Shown here: piece after piece, positions 8,881 through 35,401 of the stretch | How the letters are laid out: each line of letters opens with the position of its first letter | Numbering within the stretch: position 1 is the stretch's first letter | Position numbers and translations under genes: made by a program | The notes under the pieces: generated by a model | The model's database searches: none | Told to the model about the DNA's origin: nothing | The model's input: only the letters and a program-made list of their open reading frames with translations | Source: Escherichia coli | Lineage (GTDB): Bacteria > Pseudomonadota > Gammaproteobacteria > Enterobacterales > Enterobacteriaceae | NCBI RefSeq assembly: GCF_051903065.1 | Contig: NZ_CP178438.1 | Strand: one strand, 5' to 3' | Length of the DNA stretch: 64,000 nt

Positions 8881-10022
8881 TGTCCTGCTCCTTGTGATGG
8901 TTTACAAACGTAAAAAGTCTCTTTAATACCTGTTTTTTCTTCATATTGTTCAGCGACAGCTTGCTGTACGGCAGGCACCAGCTTTTCCGGGATCAGGGCG
9001 ATAATACAGCCACCAAATCCACCGCCGGTCATGCGTACGCCACCTTTGTCGCCAATCACAGCTTTTACGATTTCGACCAGGGTGTCAATTTGCGGCACGG
9101 TGATTTCGAAATCATCGCGCATAGAGGCATGAGACTCTGCCATCAACTCGCCCATACGTTTCAGGTCGCCTTGCTCCAGCGCGCTGGCAGCTTCAACGGT
9201 GCGGGCGTTTTCAGTCAGGATATGACGCACACGTTTCGCTACGATCGGGTCCAGTTCATGCGCTACGGCGTTGAACTCTTCAATGGTGACATCGCGCAGG
9301 GCCGGTTGTTGGAAGAAACGCGCACCGGTTTCACACTGCTCACGGCGGGTGTTGTATTCGCTGCCAACCAGGGTACGTTTGAAGTTACTGTTGATGATGA
9401 CCACAGCCACGCCTTTCGGCATGGAAACCGCTTTGGTCCCCAGCGAGCGGCAGTCGATCAGCAAGGCGTGATCTTTTTTGCCGAGCGCGGAAATAAGTTG
9501 ATCCATGATCCCGCAGTTACAGCCAACAAACTGGTTTTCTGCTTCCTGACCGTTAAGCGCGATTTGTGCGCCGTCCAGCGGCAGATGATAAAGCTGCTGC
9601 AATACGGTTCCGACCGCCACTTCCAGTGAGGCGGAAGAACTTAACCCGGCACCCTGCGGCACGTTGCCGCTGATCACCATGTCCACGCCGCCGAAGTTGT
9701 TGTTACGCAGTTGCAGATGTTTCACCACGCCACGAACGTAGTTAGCCCATTGATAGTTTTCATGAGCGACAATGGGCGCATCAAGGGAAAACTCATCAAG
9801 CTGATTTTCATAATCGGCTGCCATTACGCGAACTTTACGGTCATCGCGTGGCGCACAGCTAATGACAGTTTGATAATCAATCGCGCAGGGCAGAACGAAA
9901 CCGTCGTTGTAGTCGGTGTGTTCGCCAATCAGATTCACGCGGCCAGGCGCCTGAATGGTGTGAGTGGCAGGGTAGCCAAATGCGTTAGCAAACAGAGATT
10001 GTGTTTTTTCTTTCAGACTCAT
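8874..10022 (-). CDS. galK: Galactokinase GalK
   Basis: 382-aa ORF with GHMP kinase motifs (PxGSGLSSSAS). Confidence 0.95.
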
Positions 10023-10025
10023 TTC

Positions 10026-11072
10026 TTACACTCCGGATTCGCGAAAATGGATATCGCTGACTGCGCGCAAACGCTCTGCTGCCTGTTCTGCCGTCAGATC
10101 ACGCTGGGTTTCTGCCAGCATTTCATAACCGACCATAAATTTACGTACGGTGGCGGAGCGCAACAGAGGCGGATAAAAGTGCGCGTGCAGCTGCCAGTGT
10201 TGATTCTCTTCGCCATTAAACGGCGCGCCGTGCCAGCCCATAGAGTAGGGGAAAGAGCACTGGAAGAGGTTGTCATAGCGACTGGTCAGCTTTTTCAACG
10301 CCAGCGCCAGATCGCTGCGCTGGGCGTCGGTCAAATCGGTGATCCGCAAAACGTGGGCTTTGGGCAGCAGCAGCGTTTCGAACGGCCAGGCAGCCCAGTA
10401 AGGCACAACAGCTAACCAGTGTTCGGTTTCGACAACGGTACGGCTACCGTCTGCCAGCTCGCGCTGAACATAATCCACCAGCATTGGCGATTTCTGCTCG
10501 GCAAAATATTCTTTTTGCAGGCGGTCTTCGCGCTCAGCTTCGTTAGGCAGGAAGCTATTTGCCCAAATCTGTCCGTGCGGATGCGGGTTAGAGCAGCCCA
10601 TCGCCGCGCCTTTGTTTTCAAATACCTGCACCCACGGATACGTTTTTCCCAGCTTTGCGGTTTGCTCCTGCCAGGTTTTGACGATTTCCGTCAATGCCGC
10701 AACGCTGAGTTCTGGCAGTGTTTTACTGTGATCCGGTGAAAAGCAGATCACCCGGCTGGTACCGCGCGCGCTCTGGCAACGCATCAGCGGATCGTTGCTT
10801 TCTGGCGCATCCGGCGTGTCAGACATCAAGGCCGCAAAGTCATTAGTGAAAACGTAAGTCCCGGTGTAATCGGGGTTTTTATCGCCTGTCACCCGCACAT
10901 TACCTGCGCAGAGGAAGCAATCTGGATCGTGCGCAGGTAACACCTGTTTGGCTGGCGTTTCCTGCGCCCCCTGCCAGGGGCGCTTAGCGCGATGCGGTGA
11001 AACCAGAATCCATTGCCCGGTGAGCGGGTTGTAGCGGCGATGTGGATGATCAACGGGATTAAATTGCGTCAT
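10026..11072 (-). CDS. galT: Galactose-1-phosphate uridylyltransferase GalT
   Basis: 348-aa ORF with HPHGQ active-site motif. Confidence 0.95.
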
Positions 11073-27267: not shown

Positions 27268-27366
27268 CGTTGAAGCCTGCTTTTTTATACTAAGTTGGCC
27301 TTATAAAAAAGCATTGCTTATCAATTTGTTGCAACGAACAGGTCACTATCAGTCAAAATAAAATCA
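27268..27366. other. attL (B-O-P'): core plus lambda P' arm
   Basis: GTTGAAGCCTGCTTTTTTATACTAAGTTGGCCTTATAAAAAAGCATTGCTTATCAATTTGTTGCAACGAACAGGTCACTATCAGTCAAAATAAAATCATTATTTG matches the lambda attP P' arm as recalled, with about one mismatch. Confidence 0.9.
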
Positions 27367-28137
27367 TTATTTGATTTCAATTTTGTCCCACTCCCTGCCT
27401 CTGTCATCGCGATACTGTGATGCCATGGTGTCCGACTTATGCCCGAGAAGATGTTGAGCAAACTTATCGCTTATCTGCTTCTCATAGAGTCTTGCAGACA
27501 AACTGCGCAACTCGTGAAAGGTAGGCGGATCCCCTTCGAAGGAAAGACCTGATGCTTTTCGTGCGCGCATAAAATACCTTGATACTGTGCCGGATGAAAG
27601 CGGTTCACGACGGGTAGATGCAATTATGGTTTCTCCGCCAAGAATCTCTTTGCATTTATTAAGTGTTTCCTTCATTGATATCCCGAGAGCATCAACATGC
27701 AATGTTGTAGGGATGGCAATTTTTACGCCTGTTTTGCTTTGCTCGACATAAATATATCCATCTACGATATCAGACCACTTCATTTCGCATAAATCACCAA
27801 CTCGCTGCCCGGTAACAACAGCCAGTTCCATTGCAAGTCTGAGCCAACATGGTGATGATTCTGCTGCTTGATAAATTTTCAGGTATTCATCAGCCGTAAG
27901 TCTTGATCTCCTTACCTCTGATTTTGCTGCGCGAGTGGCAGCGACCGGGTTTGTTGTTGCATGGCCTTCAGCTAATGCCTCTCGGAATGCATCGCTCAGT
28001 GTTGATCTGATTAACTTGGCTGATGCCGCCTTGCCCTCGTCTATGTATCCATTGAGCATTGCCGCAATTTCTTTTGTGGTGATGTCTTCAAGTGGAACAT
28101 CAGGTAGCCCCCTCCTTATTGCTTTAATTTTGCTCAT
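27367..28137 (-). pseudogene. int: Lambda-type integrase Int, 5'-truncated (C-terminal about 255 codons only)
   Basis: Translation MSKIKAIRRGLPD...HLLGHKSDTMASQYRDDRGREWDKIEIK matches lambda Int from about residue 101 to the C-terminus; homology ends at 28137 where the IS left end begins. Confidence 0.9.
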
Positions 28138-29340
28138 GTGTATTAGTCGCGACTTGATCTGACACTGAGCCTTGAAAGGTTGAGAGTTACCGGTTTTGAT
28201 ATGGGTGTCGAATCCTTATACAAAACACGAGGTAACTCTCATGCTTCATACTAACAATCCCGTCATCAAACACAAAGCCGGTTTGCTCAATCTGGCTGAA
28301 GAACTCCGCAATGTTTCGAAGGCCTGCAAAATCATGGGCGTCTCGCGTGATACGTTTTACCGTTATCGCGAACTGGCTGATGAAGGTGGGGTGGATGCAC
28401 TGATTAACCGCACTCGACGAACGCCCAATCTAAAAAATCGTACCGATGATGCAACTGAGCGGGCCGTTGTTGATTATGCCATCGCGTACCCTGCGCATGG
28501 CCAGCACCGGACCAGCAATGAGCTACGTAAGCAAGGTGTCTTCATCTCAGGAAGGGGTGTACGTTCTGTCTGGCTGCGGCATAACCTTGAGAACTTCAAA
28601 AAGCGGCTGAAAGCACTGGAGGAAAAAGTAGCCCGTGACGGTATCGAGCTGACAGAAGCACAGATAGTCGTTCTGGAGCGTAAAGCCAGCGATGACGAAG
28701 CGTGTGGTGAAATCGAAACCGCACATCCCGGTTATCTGGGCTCTCAGGATACGTTCTACGTGGGTAATCTGAAAGGAGTCGGACGCATTTATCAGCAAAC
28801 GTTCGTTGACACCTACTCGAAGGTCGCACACTGTAAACTGTATGTAACCAAAACACCGATCACGGCTGCTGACCTGCTGAATGATCGTGTGTTGCCATTT
28901 TACGAATCGCAAAACCTGCCAATGCTGAGAATACTGACCGACAGAGGAACAGAGTACTGCGGTAAGGTGGAACAGCATGACTACCAGCTATATCTGGCAA
29001 TAAATGATATAGACCACACGAAAACTAAAGCGATGTCACCGCAGACAAATGGCATCTGCGAGCGGTTCCATAAGACGATACTGAACGAATTTTATCAGGT
29101 GACGTTCCGTAAAAAGTTGTATGGAGCTCTCGATACATTGCAATCGGATCTTGATGAGTGGCTGGCTCACTATAATAATGAACGAACCCATCAGGGAAAA
29201 ATGCGCAATGGGCGGACGCCAATGGAAACGTTACTTGATGGAAAGCGCATCTGGGCCGAGAAAAATTTAAGCCGGATGTAATCTGACAGATACCTGTATA
29301 AATAACCGGTAACTGTCAGATCAGGTCTGAGCTAATACAC
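28138..29340 (+). mobile_element. IS element, about 1.2 kb, IS481-like (single-ORF DDE transposase, TGT...ACA termini)
   Basis: Imperfect terminal inverted repeats (left TGTATTAG..TTGATCTGACA, right TGTCAGATCAGGTCTGAGCTAATACACA) flank one transposase ORF; family is my inference. Confidence 0.7.
28241..29281 (+). CDS. DDE transposase (integrase-core type) of the IS element
   Basis: 346 aa from ATG at 28241 (track ORF starts at an upstream TTG); N-terminal HTH and DDE-type core region. Confidence 0.75.
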   Translation: MLHTNNPVIKHKAGLLNLAEELRNVSKACKIMGVSRDTFYRYRELADEGGVDALINRTRRTPNLKNRTDDATERAVVDYAIAYPAHGQHRTSNELRKQGVFISGRGVRSVWLRHNLENFKKRLKALEEKVARDGIELTEAQIVVLERKASDDEACGEIETAHPGYLGSQDTFYVGNLKGVGRIYQQTFVDTYSKVAHCKLYVTKTPITAADLLNDRVLPFYESQNLPMLRILTDRGTEYCGKVEQHDYQLYLAINDIDHTKTKAMSPQTNGICERFHKTILNEFYQVTFRKKLYGALDTLQSDLDEWLAHYNNERTHQGKMRNGRTPMETLLDGKRIWAEKNLSRM

Positions 29341-30238
29341 ATTTGTAGGCCTCGATACATCAGGGACTCCAAATTACGTTATAGATAACAACAGCAAACC
29401 AGCCCAGCGCAATACGATCATCGGTCTCTATGGCGAAATTAACGGGAACGGGATGGTAAGGGGGCCTTGGACAATTCTTGGTGCCAGAGCGCAATATAGT
29501 AGCTGGGTATCAACCATTGACCATATGTCACACCTAATCGGCACCGATGCTACAGCAGGTAACCAGGGGGGGGATACCTTAAGCGCATCAGTAAACAACC
29601 TCTGCCCATCTGGCGACTGGTCATTACTTGATGGTGTTCTTGGCGCTCCAATTGACTATCAGCTACAAGTAGTACCAGCAGAGGCATTGGTTAAAACTGA
29701 TGTAATTGAGCCTTCTGGTGTTGGAAGAGCATTTGGTGTGAATGCTGCAAGCGCCCAATGCAAGATAGTGGTTAACCTGACCAGAGCTAACACAGATTTT
29801 ATCAGGGGAGCATTCTATTGGTGGGGCGATGCTCCATTACAGATCGCATTGGAGACACAAGATAATTCAAATCAGATTTTCTTTCAGCCAGACAAATACT
29901 TTGGCATGAACCATGGAGGCTGGAGGCTTTACAGAATATCTGCCCCTACAAACGACTGGACCAAGGCATACCGTTTGGCAATCACGATATCATCTGGGAA
30001 GTCAGGATTCATAGGTGGTTCAATTTTTAGTTGTTATCAGGCCTCCCTTCTCCCTACTTTTTGTGGATGGAGGCATGTAAAAGTTCTGTCATCGGGTAAG
30101 CCAACAATCACTAACACTTCAGGTTTCGTAAATGGCATCCAGGCACACAGAACCTCTGTGCCATCATACCCAGGGGACCCTACGGTAATGTGGGTATGGA
30201 ACGGAACCACTTGGCTTACAGTGAATGCTTCTGCATAA
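29336..30238 (+). pseudogene. Phage tail-fibre or tailspike gene, 3' fragment only
   Basis: Reading frame opens exactly at the IS right end (29336) and runs to 30238; Gly/Ser/Thr/Trp-rich; sits upstream of gtrCBA as a tailspike does in P22-like phages; assignment is positional and compositional. Confidence 0.5.
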
Positions 30239-30265
30239 AAAAGGGTGGCCTAGCCACCATCTATG

Positions 30266-31873
30266 CTAAATACTTATTTTAACATCTGTATATCTTTCTT
30301 GACCTTTAAATAAACCGAATTCGATCCATTCGATATCACCTTTATCAATGTTTGCCCCTGTTAAAAAACCACCGTCAAAGTTCATTGAGTCAGGGTAGAA
30401 ATCGAAATTTTGTACCTTATCTTTCCCTTTGTATTTGACGTGTAGAAAAATCTTCAGAGCACCATCTTTTGGCAAGGTAATATTTCTGTTAGTCTCGAAT
30501 GCAATACGCCCATCATTTGTAATATAAACGTTCTTAACATCCGCTTGGCGTGGAATTATGTTTTTGTTTACGACCATCTTTTTTCCGCTGAATACAATCG
30601 AGTAGTCCAGTTTCGCCATATTCCTTTCAATTGAAAGCACCCCATAGTACTTTCCATAAGACCACTTGTTATGGTAAGGATCAAACTTGTCTCCACTCTT
30701 GGCAAGTTTAGAAAAATAGAAATCAGGTATTCTCAACTCCCTTTTCCCTTGCGAGATTTGCTTGTCGATTAAATACTTTCTAACCTCTGATTGATGGAAA
30801 GTTTCTTTGTAAGATTCATACATCCAAAGGTATTGAGGTATAAAATACAATATAACCAAAGCAAATAATGAGCATGTCAAATATTTTTGAGTTAAAGTGA
30901 AAAAAGAATCCTTTAATAAAAAAGATACAGCAATCAAAACAAGAATCAAAGTGCCATTTGCAGCCCTGGGAGGATAGGAAGGTGCTGCAAACATAATTAA
31001 GGATGTGGATAATGCTGCAAATAAGAATATCAATGCTAATGTTGTTGATTTCTTATCTGTCTTTTCGCGCAAGAGATTTATTAATGCGATAATTGTGAAA
31101 GCCAGAAATAAAGGCCACATGATGGAAATGACATCGGGCATCCTGGAGTATAAATGCTCAACTAGCCTTTCAATTAAAGGTTTAGAGTACCAGGCGCTAA
31201 AAGATTTGGCTCTTTCATAATTTCCTGGAGCGGCAATTAAGGCGATGAATCCCGCTAAAGATAATAAGGTATAGATAAGCCCTCTATGGCGTAAAGACCT
31301 AATTATATACGCATTATATAAATAATAAATGCCAGAGAGAATAACAACTACCGCGCCAGTATTTTCGTTTGAGCACCCCGCCATCACTGCGAGAATGGAG
31401 GTTAAATAGATGTTATATCTTTTTATTACGCACAATAAGTATGCGCAAATGAACATGTTTGTCCAAAGGTAATTTGCTGAACCAACAATCCAGAAAGTGG
31501 TTTGCCCTAAATTTGTATTGCTTACCCAGTAAAGCATAAAAATAGTTAATATTTTTATGCAATCGAATTTATTTATCTCTCCTGCTGAAGAACCAATAAG
31601 AAATATTAAATAAACACTTGAAGTCAATGCTAGTGAATTTGCTATTGCTCTATAAAATTCAGGAATGGAAAGCATCGCTGTGCTGGCATAATCAGCCACT
31701 ATTCTGCCACTCCAGCTCTCATAGTGCTTTAAGTGCTCAGAAATACTTAATCCCTTTAACGCGTAAAGATAATCATCTGAATGCATGGGTGTATGCATGC
31801 AAATGCTAAGAGTAATAAAAAATATTACTAACAAAGATAATGTATGTAAAAAATAACTATTTATTCTAGGCAT
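30266..31873 (-). CDS. GtrC-like serotype-specific O-antigen glucosyltransferase (polytopic membrane N-domain plus soluble C-domain)
   Basis: 535-aa ORF, about 10 predicted TM segments then a roughly 200-aa hydrophilic domain; AT-rich; downstream of gtrB with 1-bp overlap. Confidence 0.65.
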   Translation of the reverse strand: MPRINSYFLHTLSLLVIFFITLSICMHTPMHSDDYLYALKGLSISEHLKHYESWSGRIVADYASTAMLSIPEFYRAIANSLALTSSVYLIFLIGSSAGEINKFDCIKILTIFMLYWVSNTNLGQTTFWIVGSANYLWTNMFICAYLLCVIKRYNIYLTSILAVMAGCSNENTGAVVVILSGIYYLYNAYIIRSLRHRGLIYTLLSLAGFIALIAAPGNYERAKSFSAWYSKPLIERLVEHLYSRMPDVISIMWPLFLAFTIIALINLLREKTDKKSTTLALIFLFAALSTSLIMFAAPSYPPRAANGTLILVLIAVSFLLKDSFFTLTQKYLTCSLFALVILYFIPQYLWMYESYKETFHQSEVRKYLIDKQISQGKRELRIPDFYFSKLAKSGDKFDPYHNKWSYGKYYGVLSIERNMAKLDYSIVFSGKKMVVNKNIIPRQADVKNVYITNDGRIAFETNRNITLPKDGALKIFLHVKYKGKDKVQNFDFYPDSMNFDGGFLTGANIDKGDIEWIEFGLFKGQERYTDVKISI

Positions 31874-32790
31874 TACTTATTATCCTTCAAAATATAACGA
31901 GGACGCTGCTTAACCTCGACATAAATTCTTCCTATATATTCACCCAGGACACCGATTCCGATCAACTGGATGCCTCCAAGAAACAGGGTAGAAACCAGTA
32001 AAGATGGATACCCACGCACGGCGTTACCGAATGCAATCGTGTCAAATATCATCCAAGCACCATAAAGAAAGGCAGCACCGGCAACGAACAGGCCAATGTA
32101 AGTCCACATGCGCAGCGGAAAGGTAGAGAAGCTGGTGATCCCCTCAAGGGCAAGGTTCCAGAGTTTCCAACCGTTGAACTTCGTGCTGCCAGCTACGCGT
32201 TCTGCGCGCGCATATTCAACCACATCAGTGCGTCCGCCAACCCAGCTCAATACGCCCTTCATGAACAGGTTGCGTTCTGGCATGAGCTTAATGTTTTCCA
32301 CTACTTCGCGAGACATGAGCCGGAAGTCGCCGACATTCTCTTCTATCTGAGGGTTGCTGATTTTGTTGTGAAGTTTATAGAACCACTCAGCAGATTTACG
32401 CTTCAGCCGGCTGTCAGTGGAGCGGTCAGATCGCTTAGCCAGCACCATATCAGCCCCGGCCTGCCACTTCTCGATGAGGTGAGGAATGACCTCAATCGGG
32501 TCCTGAAGGTCAACATCAATCGGGATAACCGCCTCACCAGTTGCGTGGTCAAGCCCTGCGAACAGTGCGGGCTCTTTACCGAAATTACGGGTGAAGGAAA
32601 GAGGAACGACAAGCGGATCAGCCACAGCAAGCGCGTTTATAATTGATTCTGTCGCGTCTTTGCTGCCGTCATTTATGAAGACTATCTCGACTTCATGCTG
32701 CTGAAGCCCTTCAAATTCCCGAACAGTTTTATAAAAAATAGGTATCGCGTCTTCTTCGTTAAAGACGGGAACGACCAGAGAAATTTTCAT
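31873..32790 (-). CDS. gtrB: Bactoprenol glucosyltransferase GtrB (GT2 family)
   Basis: 305-aa ORF starting [13 protein letters not shown] with DxD-type region and two C-terminal TM helices. Confidence 0.9.
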
Positions 32791-33149
32791 TTCGCATCCC
32801 TAAAGACAATGAACTTTGAATAAATAAAACCGCACACCAGACTGATGGCGGAGAAGGTGATAAGAGTGATAATTGGAGGAAGCGAGCACTTATCAGCAGC
32901 CCATCCAACAGTAGCACTCAGTGTTCCCATGAACCCGACATATAACATGTAGCGCATCGTTGTAGTCGATGCTTTGAATGTGAATTTTGCATTCGCGAAG
33001 AAGCTAAAGCTCACAGCCACAACGAAACCTGCGAAGTTTGCCAGAGCCTGATTGGTATGCGCGGCATAGATACATACACCAAAAACCACCCAGTGTATAA
33101 GTGTGTTCAGCACACCAATCGAGGTGTACTTTGCAAATAGCTTTAACAT
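32787..33149 (-). CDS. gtrA: GtrA flippase-like small membrane protein
   Basis: 120-aa four-TM ORF directly upstream of gtrB with 4-bp overlap. Confidence 0.85.
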
Positions 33150-33454
33150 TTCTTCTATCAGCTAATAATCAAAGGCATGAAGTCTATCATCCAAGTCTCA
33201 ATCGATCGATGACTTGCTGTGGTTGATGAGACAAAACTGATGCACACAAAGATTTGCACTGGATTGCAAGGCTTTGTGCTCTTCGATAGTTGTTAAGGTG
33301 GATCACTCCGGCTTTTCATCAATCCAGTCCGCCCACCACTGCATCATCTCCCTGCGCTTATCGAGATACTGAGCATGGTTGTAAATTCAACTAACCCAGT
33401 GCATTGACAAAAAATTAGTGCAAGAAGACAAAAATCACCTTGCGCTAATGCTCT

Positions 33455-33625
33455 GTCTCAGGTCACTAATGCTATCTAAGTAGTTGATTCATAGTGACTG
33501 GATATGTTGTGTTTTGTAGCATTACGCAGTCTATTTATTAGACTAAAGATATTGTAATGCATTGATATTAATGGTTTTTAATGTTTCACGTTCAGCTTTT
33601 TTATACTAACTTGAGCGAAACGGGA
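33455..33625. other. attR (P-O-B'): diverged P arm, core, chromosomal B' arm
   Basis: P-arm-like sequence (...CAGGTCACTAATGCTATCTAAGTAGTTGATTCATAGTGACTGGATATGTTGTG...) roughly 80% similar to lambda P arm by eye; core at 33595-33609; then CTTGAGCGAAACGGG. Confidence 0.8.
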
Positions 33626-33699: not shown

Positions 33700-34176
33700 T
33701 TAACTAAACATCGCGGTAATCGATGCGCTTGCCAGAGAGTGGAAATGAACGTTAAACCCGACCATCGCGCCGCTGGCTCCTTCATCGACATCAATACGCT
33801 CTACATCCAGCGCGTGAACGGTAAAAATGTAGCGATGGGTTTCGCCTTTCGGCGGCGCTGCGCCATCGTATCCGGTTTTACCAAAATCGGTACGCGTCTG
33901 CAAAACGCCGTCTGGCATTGCTACCAGACCAGAGCCAAACCCTTGCGGTAATACGCGGGTATCAGCGGGTAAATTAACAACTACCCAGTGCCACTAGCCG
34001 GAGCCGGTTGGCGCATCCGGGTCGTAGCAGGTGACGACAAAACTTTTCGTTCCCGCAGGAACATCATCCCACGCCAGATGCGGTGAAATATTATCGCCAT
34101 CGTAACCCATGCCGTTAAAGACATGACGATGTGGCAACTTATCGCCATCGCGCAGATCATTACTGATGAGTTTCAT
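33700..34176 (-). pseudogene. ybhB: ybhB (PEBP/RKIP-family protein) with in-frame amber stop
   Basis: Track ORFs 33994-34176 and 33700-33918 are one frame split by TAG at 33994-33996, where I recall Trp in K-12 YbhB; downstream sequence WHWVVVNLPADTRVLPQGFGSGLVAMPDG... stays in frame. Confidence 0.85.
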
Positions 34177-34284
34177 TAGAATGCCTCCGGGAAACCTCGG
34201 CCTTCAGGCCGGGGAGGAAAGGAGGCGGTTTTCCGACTAACTGTACTTTGCATAATTACATTTTCCTCTTTAGTATGTGAACAC

Positions 34285-35401
34285 ATGAAACGCGCATATA
34301 AATACCGGTTTTACCCGACAACTGAGCAGGCTGAGCTTTTAGCTCAGACGTTCGGCTGTGTGCGCTTCGTCTACAATTCCATCCTTCGTTGGCGTACCGA
34401 TGCGTACTACGAGCGAAAGGAAAAGATCGGTTATCTACAGGCCAACGCTCGCCTTACGGCGCTCAAAAAAGAGCCTGAATACATATGGCTGAATGTCCCC
34501 TCCAGCAGTCGTTGCGCCACCAACAAGCCGCCTTTGCTAACTTCTTTGCCGGACGAGCTGCATATCCGGCTTTCAAAAGCAAACGGCACAAACAGGTGGC
34601 TGAGTTCACTGCCAGCGCGTTTAAACACCGTGACGGCGAGTTGTATATAGCAAAAGCAAGTCGCCTCTGGATGTTCGCTGGAGTCGAGAATTACCCTCTG
34701 CGCCGTCAACCGTTACCATTTCCAGAGATAGCGCTGGCAGGTACTTTGTTTCCTGCCTGTGTGAGTTTGAACCTGTATCAATGCCTGTTACCGCTAAAAC
34801 GGTCGGCATTGATGTGGGCTTAAAAGATTTATTCGTTACCGATACCGGATTCAAAACCGACAATCCCCGCCACACCGCTAAATATGCGAAGCGATTAACG
34901 CTGCTACAGCGATGTTTAAGCAGGAAGCAAAAAGGCTCAAGAAACCGTATTAAAGCCCGCTTAAAGGTCGCCCGACTCCACGCGAAAATCGCCGATTGCC
35001 GGATGGACAATCTACACAAGTTGTCCCGCAAACTGATTAACGAAAACCAAGTTGTTTGCGTCGAATCCCTCAAGGTGAAAAACATGATCCGCAACCCGAA
35101 GCTGTCTAAAGCAATAGCTGACGCAGGCTGGAGCGAACTTGTTCGCCAGCTCCAGTACAAAGGCAAATGGGCCGAGCGGTCAGTGGTCGCCATTGACCAG
35201 TATTTACCGTCCTCAAAATGCTGTAGTTGCTGCGGTTTCACCATGCAAAAAATGCCTCTTAATGTTCGTAAATGGCACTGCCCTGAATGCGGCGCAGACC
35301 ATGATCGCGACATTAACGCGGCACGTAATATTAAAGCTGCCGGGCTGGCAGTGTTAGCCCACGGAGAGCCTGTAAACCCTGAATCGCAGCACGCGGCTTA
35401 G
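34285..35401 (+). pseudogene. tnpB: IS200/IS605-family tnpB (RNA-guided nuclease family), two frameshifts
   Basis: N-terminus MKRAYKYRFYPTTEQAELLAQTFGCVRFVYN; middle and C-terminal parts (VTISRDSAGRYFVSCLCEF, GIDVGLKDLF, CxxC...CxxC zinc finger) lie in two other frames; no tnpA nearby. Confidence 0.85.

Follow-up and report, generated by a model that had tools for sequence, protein, structure and literature searches.

How a single insertion sequence (IS) came to lie with one end in a phage integrase gene and with the other end in a phage tail-fibre gene is the question raised by the gal–bio region of Escherichia coli, which we analysed as a window of 64 kb. An earlier note on this DNA had proposed that an IS481-like element forms both junctions of a deletion inside a prophage: the element would have inserted first, and an adjacent deletion would then have removed nearly the whole prophage and joined two genes normally separated by tens of kilobases.

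The prophage remnant at the lambda attachment site

In the RefSeq annotation of an identical stretch from strain 23CRST027 the genes pgl, ybhD, ybhH, ybhI, ybhJ, and ybhC on the left side are followed by a partial integrase, an IS481-family transposase, a "hypothetical protein" and a DUF6056 protein, and then by a GT2 glycosyltransferase, a bactoprenol glucosyl transferase, ybhB, and bioA. Exactly two copies of the lambda att core GCTTTTTTATACTAA are present in the window, both as exact matches on the plus strand (27279–27293 and 33595–33609), where 0.01 copies would be expected by chance. At the left copy, the core of attL, the homology to lambda begins, and the P′ arm extends from here up to the stop codon of int. 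The right copy is the core of attR and closes a lambda-type P arm (33405–33609 including the core, plus strand), which is 85% identical to lambda and 93.7% identical to phage Huey. The two exact cores thus delimit a prophage remnant of 6.3 kb at the lambda attB site. It lies between ybhC and ybhB, the synteny of which is intact, and consists of attL, the P′ arm, int (minus strand), the IS, the tail-fibre fragment (plus strand), gtrCBA (minus strand), the P arm, and attR, so laid out from left to right; 5.1 kb of phage DNA are left.

Apart from the tail-fibre fragment the remnant carries neither lysis nor structural genes and, judging by this gene content, would be unable to kill the host. As both Xis and the arm-binding domain of Int are missing, it is also unable to excise. 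The remnant is therefore a lambda-type attB prophage by descent only.

The three gtr genes are intact and lie on the minus strand: a gtrC-type gene for a serotype-specific transferase (30266–31873, 535 aa; DUF6056 / GT_STM0557_N; PHROG 20513/34335), gtrB for a bactoprenol glucosyltransferase of the GT2 family (31873–32790, 305 aa), and gtrA for a flippase (32787–33149, 120 aa). Together they form one predicted operon for O-antigen glucosylation adjoining attR, of which ∼450 bp of upstream sequence are kept. The DNA of gtrA and gtrB is ∼81–85% identical to that of the phages SfII, SfV, SfI, and HF4s. The gtrC type is rare, being found in 3 of 5,426 complete E. coli genomes; its length of 535 aa recurs in two contigs with related phage genes, L009 and L017, which are described below.

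Between gtrA and the lambda-type P arm the remnant contains a second integrase, a P4-type relic of 27 C-terminal codons (33303–33386, minus strand; translation IYNHAQYLDKRREMMQWWADWIDEKPE followed by the stop), annotated by PGAP as a partial CDS. Phage Huey has an identical arrangement of integrase relic and P arm with 93.7% identity. The relic marks an old exchange of the integration module which is separate from the IS event. Directly to the right of attR, ybhB (33701–34177, minus strand) is in this lineage a pseudogene with an internal stop (PGAP; TAG near 33990); this gene is intact in strain 33F4. A frameshifted pseudogene of the InsQ/TnpB family (RNA-guided endonuclease) follows between ybhB and bioA (34285–35401, plus strand) and is also found in 33F4.

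The IS481-family element

The IS occupies positions 28139–29339 on the plus strand, comprises 1,201 bp and has the ends TGTATTAG...CTAATACA. We fixed its termini by lining up the ends of four further copies, which are located next to mdtA (L002/L011), in the lsrK/lsrR intergenic region (L003), on a plasmid (L004), and between pdxI and paaZ (L015). The element described in the earlier note is real, but the positions 28138 and 29340 given there lie one base outside of the exact ends. The same element of 1,201 bp with these ends is found in at least five other E. coli contexts. The terminal inverted repeats are imperfect and span ∼26 nt (left repeat ∼28139–28164, right repeat ∼29314–29339); both arms share their first 8 nt (TGTATTAG), and they agree at 21 of the first 26 positions. 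A repeat finder returned longer arms of 29 nt (28136–28164 and 29314–29342), which would place the termini at the inverted repeat ATGTG...CACAT (28136–29342). We rejected these termini, since the other copies assign the outer 3 nt to the flanks, where they match by chance.

The transposase gene (28241–29281, plus strand) is one uninterrupted open reading frame of 346 aa without the programmed frameshift of IS3. Its product scores 279.2 bits against the NCBIfam model NF033577 transpos_IS481, well above the cutoff of 224, and the next best model, IS3, gives 77.5 bits with a cutoff of 160. The Pfam domains HTH_29, rve, and rve_3 correspond to an N-terminal HTH and a DDE core. Thus, the element is a standard member of the IS481 family and is already annotated as such in RefSeq, where it bears only the generic label "IS481 family transposase"; a literature search found no specific name for it.

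Among the six contexts of the IS that we examined, two hold simple insertions. In the lsrK/lsrR intergenic region the IS is flanked by the 7-bp direct repeat GCTTATT, and local alignment as well as direct reading of the empty site in K-12 reveals a single GCTTAT in a region that differs by a few bases. On the plasmid the 7-bp direct repeat is ACTGACT. The IS is not only real but mobile.

The junctions with the phage genes

On the left side the IS adjoins a truncated lambda-type int gene (27367–28138, minus strand) comprising codons 101–356 and the last base of codon 100. Its DNA, nt 300–1071 of the coding sequence, and the adjoining P′ arm are 97.6% identical to lambda (J02459) and 98.5% to phage 2B8; for the int gene of phage Huey the identity is 98.0%. 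Homology to lambda, which begins at the att core and covers the P′ arm and the int fragment, ends at 28138; the T at 28139 is ambiguous, as it is shared with the IS end. At the base level lambda reads ...GCTCATGTAATTT and the window ...GCTCATGTGTATTAG. Position 28138 corresponds to nt 300 of the int coding sequence, that is, to the third base of codon 100, in agreement with the earlier estimate that the homology stops at about codon 101. The remaining open reading frame of 256 aa starts with the native Met101 of Int and is identical to lambda Int in 248 of its 256 residues. Missing are xis and codons 1–100, which encode the N-terminal arm-binding domain; PGAP calls the gene a pseudogene without N-terminus.

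On the right side the last in-frame stop codon, TAA at 29333–29335, lies inside the right repeat of the IS, and the reading frame is open from 29336 to 30238, exactly where the earlier note had let it begin. The DNA homology to intact tail-fibre/tailspike genes starts at 29339/29340, the A at 29339 being shared with the IS end. Both phage homologies thus end at the termini of the IS, as had been claimed. What is left of the tail-fibre gene is a 3′ fragment (29340–30238, plus strand) with the last 298 of ∼649 codons.

In comparisons with the PHROGs, NCBIfam, and PDB sequences the fragment found no match, and its assignment relies on intact relatives and on a tblastn search rather than on protein libraries. 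It aligns without gaps and with 86% amino acid identity to residues 352–649 of a 649-aa protein encoded on L017. This protein, which has matches to "tail fiber protein" PHROGs, is encoded by the final gene of a siphovirus tail operon, which also specifies a major tail protein, a tape measure and a J-like protein. The second relative, L009 (Logan contig SRR32429200_35), is 93.9% identical to the window on the DNA level from 29339 to 33209, and its homologue extends 1,050 nt further upstream, where a Pfam Tail_spike_N domain is located. In addition, a tblastn search aligned the 298 residues with 44% identity to the C-terminal part of the 675-aa tailspike of Kuttervirus CBA6, whose N-terminus matches the solved CBA120 tailspikes TSP3, TSP1, and TSP4. 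From these similarities the "tail fibre" can be assigned to a receptor-binding protein of the tailspike type, of which it represents the C-terminal 298 residues. RefSeq lists the stretch 29453–30238 (plus strand) as an intact "hypothetical protein" of 261 aa, WP_104773342.1. This entry is the 3′ part of a truncated gene of 649 codons and should be labelled as a pseudogene.

The IS is flanked by GCTCATG on the left and by CATTTGT on the right. These flanks share no direct repeat of any length from 2 to 12 bp and have no in-register matches, so that the absence of a target-site duplication stated in the earlier note holds, although simple insertions of this IS generate 7 bp. Up to the very junction both flanks retain 94–98% identity with the homologous phage DNA, and only one base separates the IS from its sister copy at mdtA in the same genome. 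Both observations together exclude that a duplication was once present and has decayed.

Other copies of the element and the search for the undeleted prophage

The genome contains only two copies of the IS. At position 28912 the attB copy has an A and the mdtA copy a T, which changes residue 224 of the transposase (Q224 at attB, H224 at mdtA). The A is private to the attB copy and is absent from all five other copies examined. As a single base separates the two copies and all others carry the T, the simplest reading is that the attB copy is a recent descendant of the mdtA copy. The latter is common to six genomes, of which only three have the attB junction, which suggests that the mdtA copy is the older of the two.

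The second copy (in L011, NZ_AP045789.1 2527400–2547500, IS at 9302–10502; 1 nt different) lies outside of the window and has the same layout, with mdtA, the IS, a head-binding fragment of a P22-type tailspike, gtrCBA on the opposite strand, and ibsB. At mdtA the homology to K-12 stops exactly at the left end of the IS, and ∼144 bp of the chromosome as well as the whole left part of the prophage are missing. The flanks, GGGTACA and AATTACC, contain no duplication. In strain EC7072022BGR, which has ∼10 copies of the IS, one copy (L015, NZ_OY856299.1 2555247–2557047, IS at 301–1501) lies between the pdxI side and a paaZ gene that lacks its N-terminus, again without a duplication (flanks TATCAGC and GCGCAAA). 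The pdxI/paaZ site is the third deletion junction formed by this IS481-family element, and the duplication-less junctions at mdtA and at pdxI/paaZ indicate that the IS is often associated with deletions.

A megablast comparison of positions 28100–29380 with 5,426 complete E. coli genomes recovered the full query, both junctions included, in only 3 of them. Its central 1.2 kb were found in other contexts with 99.4–99.8% identity, in every case annotated as "IS481 family transposase". DNA of the tail-fibre/gtrC region was likewise detected in only three of these genomes, all of which already carry the junction. The earlier note had suggested searching related genomes for the undeleted prophage. 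We looked for an intact prophage with the IS and its 7-bp duplication or for a prophage with two IS copies as intermediates, and found neither such a form nor an undeleted parent among the 5,426 complete E. coli genomes, 50,697 phage records, and IMG/VR. Within the phage records the tail-fibre/gtr query matched gtrA/gtrB only, and IMG/VR and the protein database yielded relatives with 86–94% identity, not the parent. The absence of the undeleted form limits the reconstruction without contradicting the deletion.

The other three genomes with the mdtA copy belong to the sister lineage 33F4 (L012, NZ_CM147849.1 1115001–1165000, 12800–23250), which carries a different gtr remnant at attB. This remnant has the full int gene and xis, a few early genes, and two IS5 copies which bracket tail-fibre fragments; its gtrC is of another type, and gtrA/B are only 89% identical. 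Since it is a different remnant bounded by IS5, we have ruled out 33F4 as the ancestral state of the attB site. It looks like an independent IS-driven decay at the same site.

Discussion

The junctions can be explained by an IS-mediated loss of nearly the whole prophage, and this part of the earlier proposal is supported. Of the observations which that note had named as speaking against it, neither was made: the two IS ends carry no matching duplications, and the int and tail-fibre homologies do stop at the IS termini, within one ambiguous base each. Both phage fragments have kept the orientation which they have in an integrated prophage. At the second copy of the IS in the genome, which is flanked by the upstream region of mdtA and by the start of an unrelated P22-type tailspike, the missing halves of int and of the tail-fibre gene were not found and there are no reciprocal junctions. 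Preserved orientation and the lack of the missing halves at the other copy mean that the DNA was deleted and not inverted or moved. The flanks of the mdtA copy and the intact ybhC–ybhB synteny rule out that the two IS copies gave rise to an inversion or a translocation.

The position of the two genes in relatives leads to the same scenario. In phage Huey the tailspike is the last structural gene, with a moron, attP, int, and xis after it; in the Shigella gtr phages gtrABC directly precedes attP, behind which int and xis lie (PMC3636060). From this gene order int and the tail fibre are expected at opposite prophage ends. The claim that both genes are normally tens of kilobases apart is thus borne out for their opposite location, and the distance itself we infer from Huey and the IMG/VR contig L017.

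We suggest the following course of events. A temperate phage that carried gtrCBA between its last tail gene and attP, and whose int/att module was of the lambda type, would have integrated at the lambda attB site between ybhC and ybhB. A copy of the 1,201-bp IS would then have transposed into the prophage, most likely from the older mdtA copy on the same chromosome, which differs in one base. Subsequently the DNA between one end of the IS and a second site in the prophage would have been lost, either because the resident copy transposed within the molecule, or because a further copy inserted nearby in the same orientation and the two copies recombined. The product would be a single IS which adjoins int at codon 100/101 on the left and the tail-fibre gene at codon 351/352 on the right, that is, two unrelated half-targets without a duplication. 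Given that 5.1 kb are left, a parent between 38.6 kb (the size of Huey) and 48 kb (that of the IMG/VR contig) would have lost some 33–43 kb, in round terms 35–40 kb, including xis, the immunity, replication, lysis, and head genes, and most tail genes. The size and gene content of the parent are taken from relatives whose tail-fibre/gtr segment is 86–94% identical and whose integration modules are different, and some degradation of the prophage could have preceded the IS event. Likewise inferred are the order in which the events took place, the copy that served as source, how much DNA was deleted, and any selection for the retention of gtr.

Three routes to such a structure are listed by Ngan et al. 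(2024, PMC11708052): adjacent deletion, recombination between IS copies in direct orientation, and a one-step movement of the IS accompanied by a deletion. They lead to one and the same product and cannot be separated by the sequence; the insertion with adjacent deletion of the earlier note is one of these routes or, taken broadly, covers the first two. That this IS is capable of adjacent deletions we assume from related IS3/IS481-type elements. Adjacent deletion and recombination between ISs are described as frequent causes of missing duplications (PMC11708052), and jointly these two routes are the most likely explanation, one in which we have considerable confidence. In the one-step movement the IS would have entered a double-strand break or the deletion ends as the deletion formed, with no IS resident in the prophage before. 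The attB junction would look identical, and Ngan et al. (2024, PMC11708052) observed two precedents in which no duplication was made: in E. coli C, IS5 moved as a large deletion arose, and in P. fluorescens an IS481-family element moved at the junction of a rearrangement. However, such reports are few compared to the classical routes, which are the ones called frequent in the same study, and the sequence favours a one-step movement in no respect; we consider it unlikely.

Less probable still is a deletion across a tandem pair of prophages at attB, int being derived from one phage and the tail fibre, gtr, and attR from another. Identity to lambda drops from 97.6% on the int/P′ side to only 85% in the P arm, and L009 and L017, the closest relatives of the tail-fibre/gtr region, carry other flanking modules, as would fit two different phages. 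Yet unequal identity to lambda is expected, as lambdoid phages are mosaics, and both Int (98.0%) and the P arm (93.7%) match Huey, so that the int/att module of one phage type accounts for both ends. A double lysogen would moreover be a variant of the IS-mediated deletion and not a different mechanism. A simple insertion of the IS into a pre-existing joint of the int and tail-fibre fragments would require that the duplication decayed later. Decay is a theoretical cause of missing duplications (PMC11708052), and specific support for it at this site was not found. The base-level alignments effectively refute it: the half-targets GCTCATG and CATTTGT have no in-register match over 2–12 bp, the single base that separates the IS from its sister copy marks it as young, and flanks of 94–98% identity up to the junction leave no room for local decay.

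By the IS-mediated deletion a single event would have converted an inducible phage to a fixed island of 5 kb without excision or lysis and with gtrCBA intact, a case of prophage domestication resolved to the base. The predicted activity of gtrCBA probably alters the serotype and the susceptibility to phages. The relevance lies mainly in annotation and strain typing. The mechanism is ordinary, as the IS-driven decay of prophages which spares the genes for lysogenic conversion is well known, and nothing mechanistically new is involved.

It is mildly unusual that one IS bounds two different gtr remnants, at lambda attB and at mdtA, in one genome. Both consist of the IS, a fragment of a receptor-binding protein, and convergent gtrCBA in the same orientation, and neither has a duplication. 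In the sister lineage 33F4 a similar state was reached at attB with IS5. The pattern at the two loci might go beyond coincidence and reflect a preference of the IS, in insertion or in deletion, for the distal ends of late operons in phages, or else a selected domestication of gtr by IS trimming, a reading which we regard as rather doubtful. If the latter were true, IS trimming would recurrently domesticate modules for O-antigen modification while the lethal parts of the phage are discarded.

Comparison with known systems

With its ∼1.2 kb, its imperfect inverted repeats starting with TGT, and a short target duplication the IS resembles other members of its family, such as IS481 of Bordetella pertussis and the element of P. 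fluorescens SBW25. The target duplication of IS481 of B. pertussis is 6 bp long. The IS in the window generates 7 bp and the SBW25 element 4 bp (PMC11708052). The attB junction, one IS between far-apart flanks without a duplication, resembles the deletions formed by IS150 in the Lenski long-term lines and by IS5 in E. coli C (PMC11708052). Those deletions, however, were followed in real time and involve IS of other families, whereas here the end product alone is available.

Among the phages, Huey (PQ850609, 38.6 kb) shares with the remnant the lambda-type int/xis/attP module and has a tailspike as last structural gene before a moron and attP. In contrast to the remnant, the moron of Huey is umuD-like, gtrCBA is not present, and its tailspike is unrelated. 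The IMG/VR contig L017 (UViG_2869861177_000006, 48 kb) has a complete tail-fibre gene followed by gtrC, gtrB, and gtrA (535, 305, and 120 aa), and in L009, where the tail-fibre gene is frameshifted, it precedes a gtrC of 535 aa, a gtrB of 305 aa, and a gtrA called with 137 aa. Their flanks differ from the window: umuDC follows gtrA, and L009 contains an integrase of another type with 387 aa. The two contigs are relatives and not the parent. L009 (1–13912), the closest relative of the tail-fibre/gtr region, combines within 11 kb the 387-aa integrase, early genes, two holins, the frameshifted tailspike, and gtrCBA, followed by umuDC, and looks like a reduced prophage itself.

The Shigella flexneri gtr prophages SfI, SfII, SfV, and SfX have a comparable arrangement, in that gtr adjoins attP/attR at the end opposite to int. 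They differ in their site and integrase, which are thrW and a P22/P4-type Int as compared to lambda attB and a lambda-type Int, and the remnant is further set apart by its DUF6056 / GT_STM0557_N gtrC and its siphovirus-type tailspike. Nevertheless, the outcome is the same as for the remnants in the strains Sf301 and 2457T (PMC3636060), in which the prophage is reduced and gtr is kept.
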